A model generated the notes under the pieces. That model was not told the DNA's origin and searched no databases. It saw only the letters and a program-made list of their open reading frames with translations. From positions 1,056,001 through 1,120,000 of the forward strand of contig OY970212.1 in NCBI GenBank assembly GCA_963713925.1: a stretch of 64,000 bases of DNA, written 5' to 3'. Positions within the stretch are counted from its first letter, which is position 1; every line of letters begins with the position of its first letter. The stretch comes from an uncultured bacterium (GTDB taxonomy: Bacteria; Babelota; Babeliae; Babelales; Vermiphilaceae). Shown piece after piece: positions 1 to 18,656 of this stretch. The translations under genes were made by a program, and so were the position numbers.

Positions 1-1
1 A

Positions 2-706
2 GATTTTTCTCTCAAACGTCAAAACTATGATGAATGGCTAAAAAATAAGGAAGCTTTTGAATTAGCACAAAAAACAAAGACCTGGTATCACCGGAATAAA
101 CTTACATGGATATATCGTGTCCTCACCAATGGAGAAGCTGAGTATAAAAGGCTGATGGATTTGGGTCTTTTTTTGGAAGCGACAGATGTCAGCGCTCTGT
201 ATAACGGATTACGTAGTGGCTTAGAATTAGGACCTAAAATTGGTAGGAATGCTATAAAACTTGAAGAGTTGAAATATAGTTTGCAAAAAATAGTTGATTA
301 TACAGAAAAAAACTTAGAAAGTTACTCTAAGCCAAATATGACCAATGATCCAGAGAGTAAATCAATTCCCACGTATGATGGCGGAACTGGAATATTGAAT
401 GTTTATGATACGGAAATTGACTTCGATGTTCAAGCCGATCGGCATAAAATCTTAGAAATAGGCTTTCCAAACGGTATACCTGCCCAAAACGGTATTGCGC
501 ACGATATTATTTATGATGAAGCGTTAAAAACAGATGCTGACCTTTCCTGGCATCAACTCAATAAAGAAACACGGGCTGAAATAAAAAAAAAGATACGAGA
601 AATCTGTCGTGGCATAAATGATCGAGTTGAACAAAAGGCTAAAGAGAAAATTTCGATTGCTACCTCTAAGGGAGGGGTTGTTCACTTCGGTTATGATAGT
701 CAATAG
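2..706 (+). CDS. Hypothetical protein, 5'-truncated by the window edge
   Basis: The frame of ORF 155..706 is open back to position 2 (DFSLKRQNYDEWLKNK...), so the gene probably starts upstream of the window; no recognisable family. Confidence 0.7.
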   Translation, partial: DFSLKRQNYDEWLKNKEAFELAQKTKTWYHRNKLTWIYRVLTNGEAEYKRLMDLGLFLEATDVSALYNGLRSGLELGPKIGRNAIKLEELKYSLQKIVDYTEKNLESYSKPNMTNDPESKSIPTYDGGTGILNVYDTEIDFDVQADRHKILEIGFPNGIPAQNGIAHDIIYDEALKTDADLSWHQLNKETRAEIKKKIREICRGINDRVEQKAKEKISIATSKGGVVHFGYDSQ

Positions 707-733
707 CTAATAATTCATTTTTGTCTCTCACGT

Positions 734-770
734 AAAAAGATTGCCCATACAATTCCGGCAATCTTTTTTT
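734..770. terminator. Bidirectional intrinsic terminator
   Basis: aaaaagattgcc-loop-ggcaatcttttttt, with A/T tracts on both sides. Confidence 0.75.
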
Positions 771-845
771 ATTTGACCTTACTTCAACTTGCCGGCCCGA
801 CACGGGCCGAGGGGAACCGACACATCACAGCATAAGCTTTATTGC

Positions 846-1061
846 ATGAAGATAAAAAAAATTGTCGGACCCTCATTACCCCAATTACATACAACTCAAT
901 CTGATGAGTCAGTCTTATCTTCAGATGATTGTGCAACGCTTGTCGCATTCTTTGGAGTGCTCCTGGATTGGCACCAAAATGAAAATGCGATTAATGAGAA
1001 CGCCTCAACATTAATTGAAAAAAAACTAAAAAAAGTTTCAAAAAAGGATTCTAATGAATGA
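846..1061 (+). CDS. Small hypothetical protein of the element (possible regulator or directionality factor)
   Basis: ATG at 846 (MKIKKIVG...); stop overlaps the start of the next ORF. Confidence 0.5.
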   Translation: MKIKKIVGPSLPQLHTTQSDESVLSSDDCATLVAFFGVLLDWHQNENAINENASTLIEKKLKKVSKKDSNE

Positions 1062-1314
1062 CCTAGTAACAATTGAATTATTAGAGATGTATCGATTCAA
1101 GGCAAGTAATCAAAAAGCACCTCATGATCCCATTATTATTGATAATAAAGAACATGATTATAGTGTTGAAATTGACGGTCAATTGCGACACGGCCGATAC
1201 ACAGCAATATTTAGGCCGTTAGAAAAAGATCCGAATGGACCTACTTTTATCCTTTTTGGAGGACTCAATGATGAAAAGGGGGAATACAGCTATTCGTCAC
1301 TAATGAAAAAATAA
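1054..1314 (+). CDS. Small hypothetical protein of the element
   Basis: 86-aa ORF overlapping the previous ORF, directly upstream of the helicase. Confidence 0.6.
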   Translation: MNDLVTIELLEMYRFKASNQKAPHDPIIIDNKEHDYSVEIDGQLRHGRYTAIFRPLEKDPNGPTFILFGGLNDEKGEYSYSSLMKK

Positions 1315-1378
1315 TTTTAAAACATTAAAACCATCGCTTGAATCCCGATGGTCTTAAATAAAAAACAGGAAATTTACT

Positions 1379-2950
1379 ATGAGTAATGATAACACAAAAA
1401 AAGTTTCTAAACAACGAAAAATCCCTCGCAGTAAGCAAATCGAGATCATGCAAACTGAATGGTATAAAGAAGCTCAACAATTAGCATCAGAAAAATCCCA
1501 TCTCGGTTATAAAGATTTTCCATGGGATGCTTTTTTGGAAATAACACCCAATGATAGCTTGGATAGCTCGAAACAATCACAAATCATCGCGTTACAAGAG
1601 AGGTATAAAGAGTTAATCGAGCGTCAAAAGCTTTTGTGGGCAGAAGACAACGTTGTCACTGAACTAAACAAAATTCATGCAGTTGTACACATTGATCAAA
1701 CTTTTATCATCACCGAAAAAAAGAATTCACTTGGCGGTCATGATTTTTCATTTGAAGGTAGGCAATCCTTCAAGGCGTTTTATGAAGATGAAACAATCAT
1801 ATGCATCGATGGTATTGAACGATGCAAAGCGAGCATTTGGTTGAAAAGTTCGAAAAGACGCAAATACAAAGGTATTGTTTTTGATCCCAATATAATAGGC
1901 CCTGTAGATGGCTGCTACAATTTGTGGAAAGGTTTTACGAGAAAATCAATACAAGGAACCACTCAAAAATATTGGGCTCACGTTAAAGAAAATATTTGCA
2001 ATGGAGATGAAGAATCCTATCAATATATACGAAAATGGCTCGCTTATGTTTTTCAACGACCTGATCAAGTTCACACCGGCATAGTGCTTCGCGGTTCACA
2101 AGGGGTCGGAAAAAATAGTTTCGTTGAGCCCTTGGGAGTTCTTTTGGGATCACACTATGCACCGCTCAGCAGCATTTCAGAGCTCGTTTCAAATTTCAAT
2201 TATCATCTCAAAAATGCAGTTCTAATTCACGCCAATGAAGCATTATGGGGTGGAAATAAGAAAGAGTTAGGAACAATTAAAGCAATGATCACAGAACGAT
2301 CCTGTTTAATTGAAGGGAAAGGGAAAGATAGAATTGTAGTCAGAAATTTTAAGCATGTCATTCTAAGCAGCAATGAAGACTGGCCGGTTTCATTGGATGC
2401 AGATGATCGTCGTTTTTTTGTTCTAACTGTTTCGGAAAAGCACAAAGAAGATCATGAGTACTTTAAAGCGATACAAGAAGAGCTAGATAATGGAGGCTAT
2501 GAAGCTTTATTATTTGATTTGCTCAACGAGGACATATCAAATTTTAATCCTCGTAAACTGCCAAGTTCATCTGATTCTTTCAGCATAAAAATGCGAAGCG
2601 CCGATTCCCCGCAGCGATACTTATATGAAGTATTGTGTGAAGGCGGGTTTTCCATTGGAGATGATGGTGGGAACACAACTCCTGTTTGGCAGGATACAAT
2701 CCCAAAAGATGCTGTTCGCAAAGATTATGTCGCATGGTGCGAAAAAAATGGCGAGCCTGTCTTATCCCAAAATCTATTCGGACGAGTAATAAACAAGACC
2801 ATCGCTTCTGTGCTAGATACGCGTCCGAGCTGTGGCAGCCGTCAACGATGCTATAGATTCCCTAGCTTACGCAAATCACAAGAAGATTTTTGCAAAGCTT
2901 TTAAGGAAAAGCCTGAACGAATTTTTGATAATTACGAAACTATTGACTAG
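1379..2950 (+). CDS. SF3/D5-like replicative helicase (DUF5906-type phage/plasmid primase-helicase NTPase)
   Basis: Walker A GSQGVGKNS, Walker B-like LIHANEA, IEGKGKD, ILSSN, DDRRF arginine finger, YNLWKGF upstream motif, C-terminal winged-helix-like region. Confidence 0.85.
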   Translation: MSNDNTKKVSKQRKIPRSKQIEIMQTEWYKEAQQLASEKSHLGYKDFPWDAFLEITPNDSLDSSKQSQIIALQERYKELIERQKLLWAEDNVVTELNKIHAVVHIDQTFIITEKKNSLGGHDFSFEGRQSFKAFYEDETIICIDGIERCKASIWLKSSKRRKYKGIVFDPNIIGPVDGCYNLWKGFTRKSIQGTTQKYWAHVKENICNGDEESYQYIRKWLAYVFQRPDQVHTGIVLRGSQGVGKNSFVEPLGVLLGSHYAPLSSISELVSNFNYHLKNAVLIHANEALWGGNKKELGTIKAMITERSCLIEGKGKDRIVVRNFKHVILSSNEDWPVSLDADDRRFFVLTVSEKHKEDHEYFKAIQEELDNGGYEALLFDLLNEDISNFNPRKLPSSSDSFSIKMRSADSPQRYLYEVLCEGGFSIGDDGGNTTPVWQDTIPKDAVRKDYVAWCEKNGEPVLSQNLFGRVINKTIASVLDTRPSCGSRQRCYRFPSLRKSQEDFCKAFKEKPERIFDNYETID

Positions 2951-2954
2951 GAGC

Positions 2955-3178
2955 GTCCATTATGATGTCCATGATCTGCAATAGAAAAAATATTTGATTT
3001 ATGACGTTAGTCCAAGACGTCCATATCGTCCGGGCTGTTAAGAAACCGAAACATTCTTCTCATGATAAACGGTGAAGAAAAATTTTGGTGTTCAAACCAC
3101 TCGGACCATGTGGACTGTGTGGACAATGATTATGGAATCGATATTGTCACAATCTTTCTTCCTGGACATATTGTGGAC
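2955..3178. repeat. Putative replication origin: 5 GTCC(A/G) and 5 (T/C)GGAC iterons in mirror symmetry
   Basis: Pentamers at 2955, 2967, 3010, 3019, 3028 and inverted copies at 3102, 3111, 3120, 3163, 3174, symmetric about ~3067. Confidence 0.75.
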
Positions 3179-3192
3179 TAAAAAGGAGCGTT

Positions 3193-4221
3193 ATGACTCT
3201 TATTGAAATCGCACAACAAGCTGGCATAAAACCAAAGTGGGTGGCAGGCACCGGCGGTGGAGAATATCACTCAGCATGCCCATCCTGCGGTGGGAAGGAT
3301 CGTTTCTTTATTCAGCCATACAAACAAATGGCCAAATGCGTAGGAAGTTATTGTTGTAGAAAATGCGGTATCGCTGGTGATGCAATTCAGTTTGCTCGAC
3401 AGTTTTTAAGCTGTTCTTTTCAAGAAGCTGCTCAGATGGTAAATGCAATAATAAATGAAAACATATCGCTTCCTTCTTTTGCACCTATCAATTCTGCAAA
3501 GCCAGCTATTTTGGTACCTCCTCCAGAAAAATGGTGCGCACATGCTACGGATTTCGTTAATCGTGCGCATGAACGCCTTTTGAGCAATGAGGATGGGTTA
3601 CAACTCCTCACAAACAGAGGACTTCCACTTGATGCCGTCATTCGCTACAAGCTTGGGTGGTCAGATAAAAATGAGTTCTTCTCAAGAACTCATTGGGGTC
3701 TTGCCGATCGATTCGATCAGAACAATAAGAATCGACAGTTGTGGGTACCACAAGGACTTGTTATACCTTCGATCGAGCCAAGCGGCAAAGTAACTCGTTT
3801 GAAAATTAGAAGATGCGATTGGAACGCCGGAGATAAATTACCTAAATATGTGGCAATTTCTGGTAGCATGAATGGTTTGATCATTATTGGCTCAACAAAT
3901 CGTTCTACGATGATTGTGGTCGAGTCAGAGCTTGATGCATATGCAATACATCATGCAGCATCTGATTTTGCTTTCGGAGTCGCTGTTGGAAGTAATATTA
4001 AAAACCCGGACAATATAACTGATCATAATGCGCGAAATAGCAAACAGCTGCTTATCTGTCATGATAACGATGAACCGGGAAAAATAATGTTTTCAAAGTG
4101 GCAACGCTTATATCCGCATGCTATCAACTATCCAACCCCAATTGGTAAAGATATTGGAGAAGCAATTCAAAATGGGTTCAATTTAAGAGAGTGGCTTTTA
4201 TTAGGACTCCGGTCAATTTAA
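3193..4221 (+). CDS. DNA primase (P4-alpha-type Zn ribbon plus TOPRIM)
   Basis: CPSCGGKDRF...CCRKCG...GDAI Zn ribbon; PKY; VVESELDA and CHDNDEPG TOPRIM motifs; GKDIGE. Confidence 0.85.
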   Translation: MTLIEIAQQAGIKPKWVAGTGGGEYHSACPSCGGKDRFFIQPYKQMAKCVGSYCCRKCGIAGDAIQFARQFLSCSFQEAAQMVNAIINENISLPSFAPINSAKPAILVPPPEKWCAHATDFVNRAHERLLSNEDGLQLLTNRGLPLDAVIRYKLGWSDKNEFFSRTHWGLADRFDQNNKNRQLWVPQGLVIPSIEPSGKVTRLKIRRCDWNAGDKLPKYVAISGSMNGLIIIGSTNRSTMIVVESELDAYAIHHAASDFAFGVAVGSNIKNPDNITDHNARNSKQLLICHDNDEPGKIMFSKWQRLYPHAINYPTPIGKDIGEAIQNGFNLREWLLLGLRSI

Positions 4222-4330
4222 TCAAAACCCTGAAATCGACCACTTCTGATTATAGCTGTGCCTATTTTTTTGCATCATTTTTCATTTAAATTTTTAAAAC
4301 ATTAGAAATGAGCGCTTTTTAAACCAAAAC

Positions 4331-4358
4331 TTGACTACGTCAATGAATTAGTTACAAT
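4331..4358 (+). promoter_or_regulatory. Sigma70-like promoter with a palindrome over the -35 box
   Basis: TTGACT-16 bp-TACAAT; ttgac-tac-gtcaa inverted repeat. Confidence 0.45.
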
Positions 4359-4397
4359 TAGAATATATTTAAACGTTAAAAAAACAAGGTAACCAAA

Positions 4398-4880
4398 ATG
4401 AAATTTTTAAAAATTTCTTCTGCATTTTTACTTGTGCTAGGTTTATTTGGCCGCAGTACGACACTCCTTGGAATGGATGATATTGTTATTCATAAAGCAC
4501 CAACTAAAACAAATGATCCCCAAGGGAAAAAATTTGGCAAATTCTTTTTTTCAGGCCACGCCCAAACAAGAATGAAAGAGAGAGAAGTTTCTTTTGAGGA
4601 AGCTTCTGATGTAGTGAGACATGGCAACCGTTATAATACATTAGAAGGCGCAAAACTCTGTTTTTATGACAAAAAAAATATTGCTGTAGTTCTAAATGAT
4701 AAAACCAATACCATAATTACTGTTCTTTCAAACTTTAATCAAAAAAAATTGATTAAATGGTTGAGCAAGCGCGATGAAAAAAAACCATTTGCTAAGCCTG
4801 CTGCTGTAAAACCAAATGAATTCGTTGAAAAAAAACCATGCTTTACTGAAGTAAACAGTGATTTCGATATCTTTTTGTAA
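4398..4880 (+). CDS. Signal-peptide protein with a DUF4258-like (RelE/colicin E5-fold-like) domain
   Basis: Hydrophobic N-terminus; FSGHAQTRMKEREVSFEEASDVVRHG...IAVV...TIITV pattern. Confidence 0.6.
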   Translation: MKFLKISSAFLLVLGLFGRSTTLLGMDDIVIHKAPTKTNDPQGKKFGKFFFSGHAQTRMKEREVSFEEASDVVRHGNRYNTLEGAKLCFYDKKNIAVVLNDKTNTIITVLSNFNQKKLIKWLSKRDEKKPFAKPAAVKPNEFVEKKPCFTEVNSDFDIFL

Positions 4881-5201
4881 TATAAATTTTGACAGTAATT
4901 TCTGGTTAATATAAATATATTGGGCAAGCATTTATTATGAATGCTTGCCCTTTTTTATGCTCTTTTGCTCTGATAGAATCAAAAAAAGCGCAATTCAAAT
5001 CGGTTTTAATCTTCGAAACTGGCTATCCAATCGTTTGTAAGCGCTGCCTTAAAATTGATATCATTCTACTTACCAAATTCTGTTTTTGCACTCGCTCACG
5101 ACTTAAGCGTCGGTCTATTTGAATGAGAAGACTAAAAAAATCTACTAGTCTTTTATGTTCTTCAGGAGTAAATTGCATGATCGTTCATTTTCCAAAAAAG
5201 T

Positions 5202-5858
5202 TCATGGTCTTTCATCGTCAAAATCAAAAATATCACACAATGTTGATGGTGGGAAATAACCTTCCACAAAGCGCTCAATCTTAGCCCCATACCATTCTCT
5301 CAATTCTCTGACACCTTCATTGAAACCTCTCTGGTCGTATAGAAGATATTTTCTTCTTAATTTTTGAAATGTATGCTGCCTCATGCGCGGTGGCTTCTGC
5401 TCTAACGACCCTGCACGGTTCTTCAAATAGTCTGTAGCTTTATATTGCATGTAACGGGTACGTTTCAAAGGCCTTAGTTGCTGAGAATAATAACTTAGCT
5501 TTGCACATTTGCGACACAAATACCGACCTTGCAGGCAATAGAGCTTCCTCATCCTGGAATTACATTGTGGACAGTGAAAGAATCGATAAAAGCCTCCGAA
5601 ATTACAGGGCTTACTTTCTACAGGAATAATGTATGTCCCCTGCTCAAAGACCACCCTGATATCGTCGTTTTCCTCGAGCATAGCTTTGAATTTATATCGA
5701 GGTATTTCAAGCAAAACGCGATCTTGCGATCGTCTTACCCATTCAAGCCCCTCTTTATTTTTAAACATTTCAAATGAGTCTATCTCAGAAAACCACGAGC
5801 AAAGAGCTTTCGGATTATGCTTTTTCTTGATTTTCCAGTACCAACCCCAATGCGTCAT
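5202..5858 (-). CDS. Zn-finger hypothetical protein of a type seen in integrated elements
   Basis: NFGG.RFFHCPQC...RKLY...YLCRKC.LSYYSQ and KPPRMRQHTF motifs. Confidence 0.7.
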   Translation of the reverse strand: MTHWGWYWKIKKKHNPKALCSWFSEIDSFEMFKNKEGLEWVRRSQDRVLLEIPRYKFKAMLEENDDIRVVFEQGTYIIPVESKPCNFGGFYRFFHCPQCNSRMRKLYCLQGRYLCRKCAKLSYYSQQLRPLKRTRYMQYKATDYLKNRAGSLEQKPPRMRQHTFQKLRRKYLLYDQRGFNEGVRELREWYGAKIERFVEGYFPPSTLCDIFDFDDERP

Positions 5859-5970
5859 AGCCCAGATCTCCTTTATCGAAATGTCCAGCGATGCCTGTTA
5901 TGGCCTGTATTATTTATACCTCGTTAAACCTGTAAAACGCAAGCATCTTTTCTCATAGAAAATTGCATAT

Positions 5971-5998
5971 TTGACATAACAAACAATGCTGATACGTT
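5971..5998 (+). promoter_or_regulatory. Sigma70-like promoter for the ankyrin cluster
   Basis: TTGACA followed by TG-a-TACGTT (extended -10-like). Confidence 0.35.
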
Positions 5999-6040
5999 AT
6001 TAATTAGTGATATACCACATTCATTTATTTGGAGGATAAT

Positions 6041-6430
6041 ATGCAATTCAAGCATATTTTTTCAGCAATCTTATTGATTAGCTGTTCAATTAGCCGCGCT
6101 GGCCAACAAAAACAAACAATCGACGTTATCAATAATAGCGACCAATCGCTATCCATATCGGCAAACAATGCGAGCAAGACTTTTCATGTTTCGCAAGTCA
6201 TTCCTGCATATACCCGTGCTCTTATTATTGCGCAACTTATCAACCTTAAATCCGCTCAAAATCTTTTGCTTGAAGCAATAGTGAATGATTCCGTTAAGGG
6301 AATACAAGAAGCAATACGTATGGGTGCTGATATCAACCAAGAAATTGGTGGTCAAAGACCATTGGTTTTTGCAGTTGCATTGGAAAAAATCAATGCTGTG
6401 AAATATCTTATCGCTGTAGGCGCAATATAA
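6041..6430 (+). CDS. Secreted ankyrin-repeat protein (short paralog)
   Basis: GGAGG RBS, signal peptide, GADINQEIGGQRPLVFAV ankyrin motif. Confidence 0.75.
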   Translation: MQFKHIFSAILLISCSISRAGQQKQTIDVINNSDQSLSISANNASKTFHVSQVIPAYTRALIIAQLINLKSAQNLLLEAIVNDSVKGIQEAIRMGADINQEIGGQRPLVFAVALEKINAVKYLIAVGAI

Positions 6431-6439
6431 AAAACTATG

Positions 6440-6476
6440 GGAGTCGCACTCATAAAACAATATTGAGTACGACTCC
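6440..6476 (+). terminator. Stem-loop after the first ankyrin gene
   Basis: ggagtcgcactca...tgagtacgactcc followed by tttcgtttt. Confidence 0.5.
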
Positions 6477-6488
6477 TTTCGTTTTAAC

Positions 6489-6896
6489 ATGAAGGATTTC
6501 GTGATGATAAAAAATAAGTTCGCATATGCTCTCATAATTGCATGCTTAATCCAAAGCCATTCAGTCAAGGCAATTGAATTTTCGACTCTTTACAACCATG
6601 CGACAAATCATCTTAATAAATATGTAATTATAGGTACCGTTTTATTTGTAGGCTCAGCTGTGGGAATAGCCGCATTATTTTACAAAAAAACACCTAACAG
6701 CCACTCTGTTCCAATCATCGAGATAGACGATAAAATAATGCCTTTAAAGGCACAATCTACGAAAAGCAATATCGTGAGCAATGAAGAAAATATACCGTTA
6801 ACGATCGAGACAGAAGAACAAAAAACTCTCGTGACGGTTGAAATGTTTTCATTGAAAGACGAGAGAAAACATACCTTCGAAATGTATGTACAATAA
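6489..6896 (+). CDS. Hypothetical membrane protein
   Basis: Signal peptide plus one TM helix; the start may be a few codons downstream. Confidence 0.65.
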   Translation: MKDFVMIKNKFAYALIIACLIQSHSVKAIEFSTLYNHATNHLNKYVIIGTVLFVGSAVGIAALFYKKTPNSHSVPIIEIDDKIMPLKAQSTKSNIVSNEENIPLTIETEEQKTLVTVEMFSLKDERKHTFEMYVQ

Positions 6897-6927
6897 TTGA
6901 TCCAAATGATTTAAATGGAGGAAAATC

Positions 6928-7788
6928 ATGTACAAAAAAAATCTATTTCCGTTGCTCATATTCTTGAGCATAGTTAATTGCTATGGTTCCAATAATCCGC
7001 AATCAATAAATATTTTCAACAATACTGATGAACCGGTTGCAGTAGCGTTTCAACTCCCAGAACATACTGCCGCAAATATTGAATTAAAAAAGATAGACTT
7101 GCTTCAAAATGCATTATATCAAGGCATTTTGAATGATTCCGAAGCAGTAATACGACAAGCTATTTGTGATGGTGCCGACATTAATTTGGAAAAAAACGGC
7201 AAATCGCCACTCTTGTGGGCCACGCATCTGAGAAAAAATGTTGCTCTAAAGACACTCCTTATATTCGGTGCTCGCATGGATAACCGTTGCATCGATGTAA
7301 TAAAAAGTACTCATGACGCAAAGCTTATTCATTTGTTTATTAAATACGGTCAAATTGATATCAATTCACTGAACCTTGACCAAATGCCCATATCTTTTGA
7401 GTCGTTAAAAGCTGAGGATGCTACGGATTTGTTTCGAGAGCTGGCAAATCGTGTTTCAAATATCAATTTGCTCTGGAAATTTGCATTTCCATTGGCGTAT
7501 TGGCATAAATCCAAAGGCGATGAAATCATCAGATTCTTACTCTTTCGCAATGCTGATCCAAATTATGTTTTGCGACAAAGTAACTTAATGACCGCAACGC
7601 CTTTATCGGAAGCCGCTACTAATTATCCAAACATACAAATTGTTAAAATACTTCTAAATGCGGGTGCAAAAGTAAATCAAAAAATTTCTTACGGGAGCAC
7701 TGAAAAAACAATTATTGAAGTTGCATTAATAAGAAATCGAAGTAGTGATATAATTCAAACTCTTCTTGAACATGAAACAACCGCTTAA
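6928..7788 (+). CDS. Secreted ankyrin-repeat protein
   Basis: Signal peptide; GADINLEKNGKSPLLWA, NADPN, TPLSEAA...LLNAGAKVN. Confidence 0.85.
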   Translation: MYKKNLFPLLIFLSIVNCYGSNNPQSINIFNNTDEPVAVAFQLPEHTAANIELKKIDLLQNALYQGILNDSEAVIRQAICDGADINLEKNGKSPLLWATHLRKNVALKTLLIFGARMDNRCIDVIKSTHDAKLIHLFIKYGQIDINSLNLDQMPISFESLKAEDATDLFRELANRVSNINLLWKFAFPLAYWHKSKGDEIIRFLLFRNADPNYVLRQSNLMTATPLSEAATNYPNIQIVKILLNAGAKVNQKISYGSTEKTIIEVALIRNRSSDIIQTLLEHETTA

Positions 7789-7817
7789 CGCGATACAAAT
7801 GGAGGAATAAATAAATC

Positions 7818-9047
7818 ATGAAACATTTTAATTTGATTACGGTCACATTGTTTTTTATAGTGTGGACCACATATCCAAGTTGTAACACGAATTCGTGCAA
7901 CATAACAAGTTGCAACACAGGTTCATCCTCAACAATCGGTAATGCGGCTGACAACACGGATCTAATAGTAGGACAAACAAGAAAAATAAAAATTTATAAC
8001 AATTCAAATCAACAATTGACAGCAACTCACAACGTTCCGGAATATAGTCAAGTATTAATCGAAACGACCAAGCTTCCAGAGCTTCAAACAATACTTCACA
8101 GCGGAATTTTGAACAATTCCGCTCAAGAAATTTTGGATGCAGTCAAGCTGGGTGCAAATGTCAATCTTGAAATCGATGGTAAGCTGCCTATCTTCATTGC
8201 AATATCATTAAAAAAGATAAATGCCATTGAAGTCTTGAAAAAGATCGGCGCCGTCATTCCATCTCTCGATAATATGATGTACCGTGCAATTATTAATGAT
8301 AATCCCGATCAAATTCGTTATGCAGTGAATTCCGGAGCAAATGTCAATTCGCTTGGTAAAGCCATACCTTGGGCAAAAAATAATGCCATAGTTGCTTTGC
8401 TTGAGTGCGGGGCCGTCCCTTCATTTGATCACGTGGAGCAGTCCATCAAAGTTGGGGATATAAAATCGGCTCTTTTACTGCTGAAAAATTTACCCAAACA
8501 TGCACGCGACTCGAGAAAGTTCAAACAAAACATTCTTCACAGCAAAGATATTTTTCAATATGTAGTAAGCGAACTTGATCCATTCGCTATATTTGAATTA
8601 CAGTTGGAATTCTTGCAACTTCTCATCGATTATGGATACAACATCAACGGGTCATCTTACACGAATCCTTCAATTTATAGCGATCAATCCCCTGCAAGCG
8701 CTTGGGTTAACGCAATAGAAAGCCCTTTTTATTCGGATAAAATCCTCGAGCTTCTCATGAAAAATGGGGCTAATCCTAATCAATGCATTTATGACGGTGG
8801 TACTATTTGGCATCCGTTATTTATAGCTATCCAAAGCAATAATACGAGGGCCGTAAAGTTTCTCTTAAACGCGGGAGCTGACATAAACTTAATTGGGGGT
8901 CCATCTGTGCGTGGTAACGCTCGTTCAACAAGCACTTCGAAACAAAACCCATTAGGTTATGCTCAGGCATTAAAAAACTATCATGGCCAACAAAATGACG
9001 AGATCATCAATATTTTATCAAGACACAAACCTCTATTTACTCGTTAA
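7818..9047 (+). CDS. Secreted ankyrin-repeat protein
   Basis: Signal peptide; GANVNLEIDGKLPIFIA, GANPN, HPLFIAI...LLNAGADIN. Confidence 0.85.
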   Translation: MKHFNLITVTLFFIVWTTYPSCNTNSCNITSCNTGSSSTIGNAADNTDLIVGQTRKIKIYNNSNQQLTATHNVPEYSQVLIETTKLPELQTILHSGILNNSAQEILDAVKLGANVNLEIDGKLPIFIAISLKKINAIEVLKKIGAVIPSLDNMMYRAIINDNPDQIRYAVNSGANVNSLGKAIPWAKNNAIVALLECGAVPSFDHVEQSIKVGDIKSALLLLKNLPKHARDSRKFKQNILHSKDIFQYVVSELDPFAIFELQLEFLQLLIDYGYNINGSSYTNPSIYSDQSPASAWVNAIESPFYSDKILELLMKNGANPNQCIYDGGTIWHPLFIAIQSNNTRAVKFLLNAGADINLIGGPSVRGNARSTSTSKQNPLGYAQALKNYHGQQNDEIINILSRHKPLFTR

Positions 9048-9060
9048 AAATCAATCTTAC

Positions 9061-9087
9061 AAAGCCGGAATTAACTCCGGCTTTTTT
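9061..9087 (+). terminator. Intrinsic terminator
   Basis: aaagccggaattaactccggctttttt. Confidence 0.8.
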
Positions 9088-9166
9088 ATTACCCGAATAT
9101 GAATTTTTGTGATATTATTAAAGATGAAAAACACCTTATTGATAATCACAAAATAATTCTACATCT

Positions 9167-10633
9167 ATGCAAAAAACCGTCATCTATGCCCGAGTATCAT
9201 CTCGAGACCAAGAAATTGAAGGCTTTTCAATCCCCGCTCAACTTAAAATCATGCATGAATATGCATCAAAGAATCATCTCACAATTGCGCAAGAATTTAC
9301 TGATGTTGAAACAGCAAAAAAGGCTGGACGCACTCAATTCACCAAAATGCTCACATTCCTAGAACAGAACCCTACCGTTAAGCACATATTAGTAGAAAAG
9401 ACAGATCGCTTATTACGTAACATTGCTGATTACGCGCTCATTGATCGTTTGATTGAATATTCCGACACCAAGATTCACCTGGTCAAAGAAAATGTAATTT
9501 TGAGCAAAGATTCGCGCTCAAATGAAAAGTTCATTTTCGGCATAAAAGCCCTCATGGCAAAGAATTATGTCGATAATCTTTCGGAAGAAGTCCGCAAAGG
9601 GATGATCGAAAAAGCCTCACAAGGCACCTTTCCCTCAAACGCACCCTTTGGTTATGTAAATGCTCGTGAAGGCGATAAAAAAACAATTGCAATTGATCCA
9701 AAAGCAGCACCCTTCATTAAAAGAATGTTTGAGTTGTACGCAACAGGAAGCCACTCACTAAAGACTTTAAGAAAAAAAATTCTTGATGAAGGTCTTGTGT
9801 ATCGTAGCGGCAAACATTTCTATGTCAGCACCTTAGAAACCATTCTCAAAAATGAATTCTACACCGGCATGTTTATGTGGCGGGGGAAACGATACGAGAA
9901 TGCTTCTCACGAACCAATAATTAGCAAAGCACTTTATCATCAGGTACAGGATATGCTCAGACATCCCAAAAAAGATAAATCAAAAAAAGGTCTTTTTACC
10001 TACACAAACTTGATCAGGTGCGGAGTATGCGGATGCAAACTCACTGCCGAACTCAAGAAAGGTAAATACATCTACTACCATTGCACAGGGCAAAAGGGTT
10101 ATTGCATGCAATCCTACCTGCGCCAAGAAACAATCGATGAGCACTTTGAACAGTTATTGGCTTCGATTCAAATTGATGAAGCAACTCAGATGATGGTATT
10201 AAAGGGTCTGCGCGAAAGCATGCAAGACAAAATTGAATATCATAACAACCTTGCATCACAGCTCGAGCAACAAATAAAGGTAATTCAGAGACGTATTGAC
10301 CAGGCGTATCTTGATAAGCTTGACGGAAAAATTAGTGAAGACTTTTGGCAGGAAAGAACAAGAAAATGGTCTTCTGAAAAAGATGATCTTTATATAAAAT
10401 TACTCGCTCTTCAAAAAGCTGACTTACACTACCTTGAAAATGCGTCACTCGCCATAGAACTCTCCAATAAAGCGTCTAGCATGTTCAAAGGCCAAAGCAG
10501 TGAGCAAAAAAAGCGACTGTTGAATTTATTAATTGGGAACTGCACCTACAAAGACGAAAAGATCGATGCAGAGCTGAAACCGATCTTCTACTCTATTTTC
10601 AAATTGTCAAAATCTGGAAAATGGTGGAGCTGA
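9167..10633 (+). CDS. Large serine recombinase (integrase)
   Basis: YARVSS catalytic motif, DRLLRN, recombinase domain (APFGY, ILKNEFYTG, HEPIIS), Zn ribbon CGVCG...YYHC, coiled coil. Confidence 0.95.
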   Translation: MQKTVIYARVSSRDQEIEGFSIPAQLKIMHEYASKNHLTIAQEFTDVETAKKAGRTQFTKMLTFLEQNPTVKHILVEKTDRLLRNIADYALIDRLIEYSDTKIHLVKENVILSKDSRSNEKFIFGIKALMAKNYVDNLSEEVRKGMIEKASQGTFPSNAPFGYVNAREGDKKTIAIDPKAAPFIKRMFELYATGSHSLKTLRKKILDEGLVYRSGKHFYVSTLETILKNEFYTGMFMWRGKRYENASHEPIISKALYHQVQDMLRHPKKDKSKKGLFTYTNLIRCGVCGCKLTAELKKGKYIYYHCTGQKGYCMQSYLRQETIDEHFEQLLASIQIDEATQMMVLKGLRESMQDKIEYHNNLASQLEQQIKVIQRRIDQAYLDKLDGKISEDFWQERTRKWSSEKDDLYIKLLALQKADLHYLENASLAIELSNKASSMFKGQSSEQKKRLLNLLIGNCTYKDEKIDAELKPIFYSIFKLSKSGKWWS

Positions 10634-10697
10634 CCGGAATCGAACCGGTGACCTCATGAATGCCATCCATGCGCTCTACCAATTGAGCTACAGCCCC
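10622..10697 (-). tRNA. tRNA-Ala(GGC)
   Basis: Cloverleaf GGGGCTG...anticodon loop AT-GGC-AT...TTCGATT...CAGCTCCACCA. Confidence 0.95.
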
Positions 10698-18397: not shown

Positions 18398-18564
18398 AAA
18401 TTTAAAATCTAGCCATTATTTTATTGGCCGGCCTGCCTGTCCGCAGTCGCTTATCCACGTCTTACGACTTGGCAAGCTATGGCGCGACAGCCTACACTTG
18501 TTCTATAAAATTTCAAATGTTCTGCCTTAAGACTGGCCCGCCCAGCCGTAGCCTTGGCGGAGGC

Positions 18565-18656
18565 TGGCGGAGAGAGAGGGATTCGAACCCTCGATGCCCT
18601 TTTCAGGACATACACGATTTCCAATCGTGCTCTTTCGACCACTCAGACACCTCTCC
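18565..18656 (-). tRNA. tRNA-Ser(GGA)
   Basis: GGAGAGG acceptor, CACGA-TT-GGA-AA-TCGTG anticodon arm, long variable arm, CCA end. Confidence 0.95.

Follow-up and report, generated by a model that had tools for sequence, protein, structure and literature searches.

A putative 14.1-kb integrative element with a split serine integrase gene at a tRNA-Ala gene of an uncultured Babelales bacterium

The window analyzed here is a 64,000-nucleotide stretch (positions 1,056,001-1,120,000) of G000, the genome of an uncultured bacterium of the order Babelales. At its left end lies most of what is probably a non-conjugative, apparently intact integrative element, a member of a family spread through the host's order. 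The element likely measures 14,132 bp (1,052,490-1,066,628 with both cores counted) and sits at the 3' end of a tRNA-Ala gene, and its serine integrase gene appears to be split by the element's own attachment (att) site. G000 is a single 1.32-Mb contig and is 95.75% complete. Positions above 1 million, and those prefixed G000:C1, are genome coordinates. The comparison set consisted of 201 genomes of the order, with relatives labeled G0xx, G1xx or G2xx, and the open reading frames (ORFs) of the element were annotated by profile searches against Pfam, PHROG, NCBIfam and PADLOC.

Dependentiae (TM6) are described as obligate protist parasites with large ankyrin repertoires, including 98 copies in Chromulinavorax (PMC6561590). 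The host of the element is itself a probable parasite of protists. A literature search of titles and abstracts found no publication on mobile elements of Dependentiae. Nor did titles and abstracts, in a search that was thin on subscription papers, yield this element family, a conserved detached integrase tail or att-bounded toxin units.

Boundaries of the element

The left core TGGTGGA is the antisense of the last 7 nt of the tRNA and lies 14,132 bp from the right core (Table 1). Thirteen of the first 17 nt are identical between the left junction and the tRNA arm. When joined with the integrase end, the arms form an inverted repeat (18/23) centered in the core; seven other G000 sites match equally well. 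A tail profile was built from the junction peptides of 14 relatives, chosen by eye and with G000 excluded, and it ranked the left junction second among the 34,215 TGG sites of G000. Ranks 1, 3 and 4 were the far junctions of three other tRNA-linked units, so that the top four sites were all far junctions downstream of host tRNAs.

Just outside the left core is a hairpin of the repetitive extragenic palindromic (REP)-like type. This class adjoins the CCA in 20 of 38 host tRNAs, compared with 73 of 17,551 TGG sites in G000, and, as judged by eye, it is present at the CCA in 13 of 16 integrase-free tRNA-Ala(GGC) genes of relatives. Because the class adjoins tRNA CCA ends, the hairpin at 1,052,425-1,052,489 was taken to be the displaced flank of the tRNA. 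The GC content of the element is 0.380, compared to 0.408 ± 0.013, and only 12 of 653 windows are as low. An Rfam search returned the tRNA as its sole match.

Two other left boundaries were considered and rejected. No tRNA duplicate of at least 8 bp was found in the 40 kb to the left, and no att tail scores near the umuDC and nudix genes 16 kb left of the window; these genes were treated as older island material. An earlier note on this DNA had proposed an integrative element outside the core genome. The comparison supports this, as the helicase occurs in 13 of the 201 genomes and an integrase is absent from the site in 16 of the 17 relatives that have tRNA-Ala(GGC) next to dsbD. Phage or conjugation genes to the left and core synteny were both checked as grounds for doubting mobility, and neither refuted it.

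Sequencing reads were also searched. A soil run containing 0.17 of the words, possibly from the source strain, gave 28 matching contigs, 25 of them at 99% identity or more; at a depth of only 1-3, these held no circle joint and no informative loose end. In two other runs, most of the matches were cross-matches to tRNAs.

The integrase gene and its detached tail

The integrase has the features of large serine integrases: Resolvase, Recombinase and zinc-ribbon domains, a catalytic serine and a short core with imperfect inverted-repeat arms. Its YARVSS and DRLLR motifs are intact. The earlier note had described a large serine recombinase running into tRNA-Ala, and the Pfam domains and a 12-nt overlap with the tRNA-Ala(GGC) gene on the - strand bear this out. 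The last three residues and the stop codon are supplied by the antisense of the tRNA. Since attP appears to lie inside the integrase gene, the integrated enzyme would end in tRNA-antisense residues, with its native tail parked at the far junction. The circular form would rebuild a 517-aa integrase with a conserved 32-residue tail. In myxophage Mx8 and in SSV1, the att site also lies inside the integrase gene and integration alters the enzyme; these are tyrosine recombinases of viruses.

The best named matches to the integrase come from two 'Candidatus Babeliales' genomes (67% and 65%), and three differently labeled metagenome-assembled genomes also match at 65-67%. At 19 of 21 loci in G000 and relatives, the integrase reads in frame into the TGG antisense to CCA, and the sequence downstream is tRNA-derived and variable. 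A survey of many phyla gave 81 loci, with 59 in frame into a tRNA CCA, 3 near a tRNA but off frame, 15 with no tRNA and 4 cut.

At the far junction, the tail counted from TGG is 25-38 codons long in 28 of 31 cases. A typical tail has W, D at position 6 and then [YF]-[FL]-[RS]-[NT]-F. The set of 31 leaves out one G013 junction (23,846 bp), where the tail is out of register. The tail frame stays open for at least 12 codons past nt 36 in 28 of the 31, compared to 11 and 8 in the other frames, and stops number 5 of 403 versus 36 and 38. Third codon positions were the least conserved in 24 tails (0.62 versus 0.81 and 0.82; 0.40 versus 0.56 and 0.57). Seven natural joints of an integrase end with a tail are in frame, one of them a full 507-aa ORF in G000. 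These data suggest that the tails are under coding constraint beyond the att arm. DNA-binding constraint alone was rejected as an explanation because the frame bias continues beyond nt 36.

A single-sequence fold of a natural tail-bearing integrase reached a mean predicted local distance difference test (pLDDT) score of only 46.8. Two 'phage' records with 29-31% identical integrases, considered as possible circles, proved to be integrated copies beside tRNAs.

Replication module and small genes

The ORFs together with the Pfam and PHROG matches agree with the gene order and identities listed in the earlier note (Table 1), and its proposal that the element has a replicon of its own was supported. 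The helicase has a Walker A motif (GSQGVGKN) at residue 239. Between the helicase and primase genes, the iteron array that the note had seen consists of five GTCC followed by five GGAC copies across an AT-rich core. None of 5,000 dinucleotide shuffles reached 10 copies (maximum 7), and this is the richest 242-bp window of G000; in a control with the best 5-mer, 2 of 1,000 reached the observed level. The GTCC/GGAC polarity is kept in 9 of 11 helicase-primase gaps of sister elements. The region is probably the replication origin.

The 393-aa gene has homologues at the same end of seven of nine sister elements. Its protein had no family match in profile searches, and its ESM Atlas clusters are unnamed, with recognition below threshold. 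The small helical protein with an LxxFFxLLxxxD motif recurs in most sister elements, and the 14,132-bp element carries two copies. Its top five matches in G000 are all in integrase elements or their remnants, and we regard it as a candidate directionality factor. In the 218-aa protein, two CxxC pairs are invariant in eight homologues; Pfam, PHROG, NCBIfam and PADLOC gave no match. Searches of PDB sequences with three family profiles gave nothing below an E value of 0.09, and a sigma-70 scan found 43 sites versus 46.7 expected.

Table 1. Features of the putative element and its surroundings. Positions are those of the window unless marked as genome positions.
Feature	Position	Strand	Evidence or remark
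REP-like host hairpin, displaced tRNA flank	genome 1,052,425-1,052,489		outside element
Left core TGGTGGA	genome 1,052,490-1,052,496		7-bp copy of tRNA-Ala end
Detached 32-codon integrase tail	genome 1,052,490-1,052,588	+	profile, frame and codon tests
att inverted-repeat arm, left	genome 1,052,508-1,052,530		18/23 match with 10592-10614
Probable immunity ORF, 143 aa	genome 1,052,596-1,053,027	-	position; homologues
Probable immunity ORF, 135 aa	genome 1,053,008-1,053,415	-	position; homologues
Ntox17 polymorphic toxin	genome 1,053,412-1,055,427	-	likely start 1,055,358; PF15524 5e-24
In-window share of element	1..10628	.	further 3,510 bp left of window
393-aa conserved left-end gene, 3' part	1..706	+	starts at genome 1,055,525
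71-aa small helical protein	846..1061	+	LxxFFxLLxxxD motif; 90 aa from a TTG start at 789
86-aa ORF upstream of helicase	1054..1314	+	homologues before helicase in 3 sister genomes
Superfamily 3 (SF3)/D5-type helicase, 523 aa	1379..2950	+	DUF5906 2e-20; phrog_1156 2e-43; TIGR01613 below cut-off
Probable origin	2951..3192	.	5 GTCC facing 5 GGAC across AT-rich core
Zn-ribbon/TOPRIM primase, 342 aa	3193..4221	+	PF08273 (Zn_Ribbon_Prim), PF13155 (Toprim), phrog_849
DUF4258-like protein, 160 aa	4398..4880	+	hydrophobic N-terminus; DUF4258 2.5e-5, 24.9 bits, cut-off 25
51-aa second copy of small helical motif protein	5023..5178	-	
Two-CxxC (Zn-finger) protein, 218 aa	5202..5858	-	42-56% identity to 7 homologues
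Four-gene cargo block	6029..9047	+	hydrophobic N-termini; 133-aa ankyrin, 135-aa ORF, 286-aa ankyrin, 409-aa ankyrin
Large serine integrase, 488 aa (integrated form)	9167..10633	+	Resolvase + Recombinase + Zn_ribbon_recom (Pfam)
att inverted-repeat arm, right	10592..10614	+	inside integrase 3' end
tRNA-Ala(GGC), intact	10622..10697	-	right junction core formed by last 7 nt (10622-10628)

Cargo

Five cargo ORFs begin with hydrophobic stretches by a crude hydropathy measure. Pfam ankyrin matches cover the genes at 6928-7788 and 7818-9047, and a weak one, below cut-off, the gene at 6029-6430; PADLOC gave one candidate family, matched by two ankyrins only. Terminator-like hairpins follow the ankyrin block (9061-9084) and the DUF4258-like gene (4922-4950), and the DUF4258-like protein has no homologue in any relative locus compared.

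Close homologues of the 286-aa ankyrin were found in 7 of 200 other genomes of the order. The homologue lies inside an element in G019 and beside a tail in G244; G174, from another family, has the whole four-gene order beside an att tail. A three-gene ankyrin block in G039 is 1.8-3.8 kb from the end of a tRNA-Glu gene, and three genomes show no link. The earlier suggestion that such elements spread the ankyrin cargo thus gains support from three of the seven genomes, where the homologues are inside or beside an att junction, and from a fourth, where they are near a tRNA 3' end.

The 4.3 kb added on the left consists of the Ntox17 toxin, two probable immunity genes and the 393-aa gene. Homologues of the immunity ORFs follow Ntox17-type toxins in G009, G013 and G090, and the toxin family is present in 18 of 79 other genomes of the host's family. 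An array in G013 has five junctions, spaced 2,497-2,965 bp apart, and between them lie four toxin genes, of which one has a colicin D domain. At a second G013 site and in G009 and G090, an Ntox17-type toxin is again accompanied by this immunity family, close to att or tRNA ends. Units of toxin and immunity genes that lack an integrase occur as tandem arrays bounded by att sites.

Related elements

Ten att-bounded elements (this one and nine sisters) were mapped, ranging from 6.6 to 16.7 kb, at tRNA-Ala, -Arg or -Glu. Five of the ten, 10.6-14.1 kb long, have both helicase and primase, while the rest contain just one of these genes or another core. The common plan runs from the tail through variable cargo, the left-end gene, a SpoVG-like or 86-aa gene, the replicon, a variable slot and more cargo to the integrase and tRNA. 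The slot after the primase holds a Zn-finger gene in the 14,132-bp element, G002, G093 and G127, and three genes, including one for a terminase-small-subunit (TerS)-like protein, in G024, G214, G222 and G227. A metagenome scan with the primase found three short contigs at 50-51%.

Several further loci in G000 were recorded. A 10.4-kb sister at tRNA-Glu (G000:C1:1,308,295-1,318,670) carries type I restriction-modification genes as cargo and a Cas4-like nuclease, and has an uncharacterized core gene of 390 aa in place of the helicase and primase. Upstream of a tRNA-Lys/Glu pair, an integrase C-terminal remnant has an in-frame tail fusion (G000:C1:1,302,811-1,303,083). At G000:C1:601,371-610,287, a tRNA-Asp is followed by a hairpin, a toxin-immunity pair, an intact tail/integrase joint (the 507-aa ORF) and, 8.9 kb out, another att junction. 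At G000:C1:36,823-39,352, a tRNA-Arg(TCT) whose 3' end lacks the normal CCA is followed by an integrase-less 2.5-kb unit with a 600-aa HINT-domain protein, a 161-aa ORF and, at its end, the best-scoring att tail of the genome. A toxin-family gene at G000:C1:837,876-840,074 starts 160 bp from a tRNA-Gln 3' end; no att tail was detected there.

Beyond the left junction, the island at G000:C1:1,039,358-1,051,854 contains a second Ntox17 toxin, a series of immunity-like paralogues and a 34-aa remnant of a toxin tip, together with SDR, bicupin, nudix and PfpI genes, a Gp49/helix-turn-helix addiction pair and a umuDC-like pair. The nudix and PfpI genes are 85% and 93% identical, respectively, to genes beyond the G013 array. 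G013 has two tRNA-Arg sites with tandem att-bounded toxin-immunity units (G013:C1:996,000-1,018,000 and L253), and the element at the first also has a tyrosine recombinase and a 1,486-aa helicase. In the sister loci L193, L196, L030 and L198, a DUF3987 replicon, mostly with Toprim, replaces the DUF5906 helicase, and L194 and L035 have two or more serine recombinases close together.

Proposed mechanism

The sequence indicates that the integrase recombined attP with the last 7 nt of the tRNA-Ala gene, leaving the tRNA whole and displacing the hairpin by 14,132 bp. The sequence and the comparison with relatives indicate that attP is in the integrase gene, so that excision would rebuild the 517-aa enzyme from the 488-aa form and the tail. 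The long form made by the circle may be the integration-proficient one, and the short form may excise the element with the small helical protein as directionality factor. Replication of the circle would start at the GTCC/GGAC origin and use the helicase and primase that the element encodes.

The weakest step is transfer, in which the element would travel as a passenger. The route we favor, at somewhat below an even chance, is between cells that live in one protist host, by way of DNA uptake or vesicles; phage capsids are a tentative second and other routes are unlikely. Recurring layouts suggest two variable cargo slots, with secreted ankyrins by the integrase and a toxin-immunity pair by the far att arm. 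Repeated integration and excision could leave att-bounded toxin-immunity units piling up at tRNA ends.

Since related elements carry similar secreted ankyrins and toxin-immunity pairs, they are a likely gene-exchange route among intracellular bacteria. The family could be a concrete vehicle for the spread of effectors and could point to conflict between bacteria within host cells. The split integrase is a candidate for a compact directionality switch, and integrated copies that lack their native tail would be relevant to the mining of serine integrases for tRNA-end insertion tools.

Alternative explanations

Several points weigh against the interpretation as an intact 14,132-bp element with a switchable integrase. 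No conspecific genome was in the comparison, so the left end rests on motifs and not on an empty allele or circle, and the gene order left of tRNA-Ala in relatives differs from that in G000. The inverted repeat is weak in five sisters (8-11/19), and mismatched arm pairs score equally high. The 31 tails are not independent, as 5 come from one genome and 11 were found by a pattern that fixed the first 28 nt. Because the short form keeps all three Pfam domains, the tail may tune activity rather than switch it. Eight of 12 extended toxin regions have no tail, integrase or nearby tRNA 3' end, for which reason we consider the toxins frequent passengers rather than exclusive cargo. The roles of the tail, small protein, origin and cargo are all putative.

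In line with the earlier note, Pfam, PHROG, NCBIfam and further profile searches found no capsid, terminase, relaxase or type IV secretion system (T4SS) family among the element ORFs. G000 itself gave no match to PF03237 or PF03354 (terminase) or PF05065 (capsid), and none to PF03135 (VirB4), PF02534 (coupling protein) or PF03389 and PF03432 (relaxases; other relaxase families were not searched). It does contain ComEC and an ORF that, from its N-terminal motif, we take to be pilin-like. PF03237 was found in only 6 of the 201 genomes, and in some cases on contigs that looked host-atypical by eye. As the element has no transfer genes, G000 has no match to the terminase, capsid and conjugation families named above and the reads are thin, dependence on a helper is a tentative proposal; it is kept alive by the TerS-like gene of the sisters.

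The strongest alternative, though a doubtful one, is a true phage satellite like the phage-inducible chromosomal islands (PICIs) or PICI-like elements (PLEs), which a helper phage would induce and package into its capsids. The size, the integrase at one end, the primase-helicase-origin module and the missing capsid would all fit. In G024, G214, G222 and G227, a 130-180-aa gene follows the primase or its equivalent, and its nearest ESM Atlas clusters are mostly phage proteins; 16 of 30 matches belong to sets that include PF16677 GP3_package, at a score of 0.94 with 187 features shared and the family being on 22% of that cluster. Serine recombinases and TerS are also described in marine satellites (PMC9618062). 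However, this TerS-like gene is absent from the 14,132-bp element and from G000, and it matched nothing in Pfam, PHROG, NCBIfam or PDB sequences. No AlpA-like regulator was found among the element ORFs with Pfam, PHROG and NCBIfam, the three terminase and capsid families are missing from G000, with PF03237 confined to the six genomes above, and IMG/VR held no relative of the helicase or Zn-finger protein and one integrase at 43%.

Another possible explanation, which we rate as rather improbable, is a composite in which a core of about 11 kb, from the 393-aa gene to the integrase, fused to an older toxin-immunity unit and the internal att junction was lost, making the toxin a recent passenger. 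In G024, G013 and the tRNA-Glu element of G000, a distance of 135-158 bp separates the tail from the left-end gene, and immediately beyond the junction there is another toxin-immunity set, with 891 bp at 93% identity to the inner toxin. Against a fusion, there is no att remnant between the toxin and the 393-aa gene, and the sisters G002, G127 and G078 also hold 1.0-2.7 kb of cargo in the left slot. The sole usable far junction is at genome 1,052,490, and therefore excision would still remove 14.1 kb.

A further proposal, which seems unlikely, concerns the arrays: a serine-integrase cassette system in which hairpin-toxin-immunity-tail units are one-att circles that are captured, stacked and popped out at tRNA CCA ends, with the swap of tails setting direction. 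If true, it would be an integron-like toxin arsenal for conflict among intracellular bacteria. The four tandem 2.5-3.0-kb units of G013, each with a toxin gene, and the integrase-less unit at the G000 tRNA-Arg would be consistent with capture. The G000 tRNA-Asp unit lies between an intact tRNA and an intact integrase/tail joint, an arrangement that does not result from simple accretion. However, the toxins of the G013 array are 59-96% alike over shared parts, so it could have arisen by tandem duplication, and most of the toxin homologues examined have no att site.

That the element is a stranded remnant unable to excise is quite unlikely. Decayed relatives do exist in G000, namely the integrase fragment at 1,302,811 and the integrase-less unit at tRNA-Arg, but the integrase, helicase, primase and tail frames are open here, the catalytic motifs are intact and both att arms are well preserved. 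The earlier note had recognized neither that an att site lies within the integrase gene nor that there is toxin-immunity cargo, and its 9.8-kb unit (790-10623) is very improbable as the whole element: although that span includes genes for replication, cargo and the integrase, there is no att-like site near 790, the 393-aa family marker and three other genes are left of it, and the junction is at genome 1,052,490.

Comparison with known systems

The class of tRNA-linked elements with primase-helicase and either cargo or TerS is already known. By our comparison, the 14,132-bp element would be closest in its workings to a tycheposon of the kind that carries cargo, with a split serine integrase resembling DsiB and accretion as in cis-mobilizable elements (CIMEs). 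The Prochlorococcus tycheposons are described as targeting tRNAs, carrying primase or helicase and leaving remnants that build islands at tRNA ends (bioRxiv 10.1101/2020.12.28.424599). Their cargo- and TerS-bearing types share integration and replication modules, as do those of the present family. They are reported to have mostly tyrosine recombinases (a large serine recombinase in 27 of 937), att repeats of about 40 nt and nutrient cargo, in free-living marine cells. The element, likened to them by description, has instead a serine integrase whose gene is split, a core of 7-10 bp at the CCA and a cargo of toxin and ankyrins.

The ssrA islands of Dehalococcoides (PMC3146451) have a CcrB-like integrase, DsiB, whose 3' end is stated always to overlap attL, and form tandem islands without transfer genes of their own. 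McMurdie et al. (2011) proposed that full DsiB function requires the circle or a neighboring island in front of the gene (PMC3146451). The integrase 3' end overlaps attL here as well, but the target is tRNA-Ala and no DsiA/ParB/Mom family is present. The islands differ in their ssrA target with a direct repeat and their DsiA/ParB/Mom module, and the available text of that paper names no primase-helicase-origin module and mentions no conserved detached tail. A split-integrase layout is likewise not mentioned in the available part of PMC12884075, and a 2026 provirus survey reports that serine integrases favor coding sequences (PMC13626063).

PICIs, P4-like satellites, PLEs and virion-encapsidated integrative mobile elements (VEIMEs) are described as being roughly one-third the size of a phage genome, with an integrase and primase/helicase and no complete set of virion genes, and PLEs and VEIME module 3 have serine recombinases (PMC9618062). 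The element shares with PICIs and P4 an integrase, primase/helicase and origin within 7-20 kb, but not their tyrosine integrase, and no AlpA, TerS, capsid-remodeling gene or helper was found. No AlpA/Stl-type regulator matched the element ORFs in Pfam, PHROG or NCBIfam, where a divergent one could escape. No packaging or capsid hijack gene (TerS, Sid, Psu or capsid) was found in the element, the TerS-like lead being in sisters only. The relaxase, coupling protein and T4SS of integrative conjugative or mobilizable elements are missing too.

CIMEs are integrase-less units that keep their att sites and form a tandem with a complete element at the 3' end of a tRNA (PMC5704250). They are described from conjugative or mobilizable elements, whereas the units here are uniform 2.5-3.0-kb toxin-immunity units with no relaxase. 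Polymorphic toxin loci, including Ntox17, are similar in their secreted N-terminus, C-terminal toxin domain, toxin-immunity order and strings of immunity genes (PMC3482391). Classical toxin cassettes are 3' fragments recombined into one gene, as described there; in contrast, full-length toxin genes lie between att junctions here. With integrons, only the array layout is similar, as a serine integrase and att arms take the place of the IntI tyrosine recombinase and attC hairpins.

Other observations

REP-like hairpins occur at further tRNA CCA ends, including window position 18,530-18,570, and may represent a separate repeat-insertion system aimed at CCA. Small ORFs starting MY/FYVY, which are presumably GIY-YIG-like, lie beside hairpin-type ends in G009, G013, G039 and G107. 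Three clustered tRNA-Arg calls at G000:C1:703,217-705,351 include two CCT copies and have atypical 3' ends.

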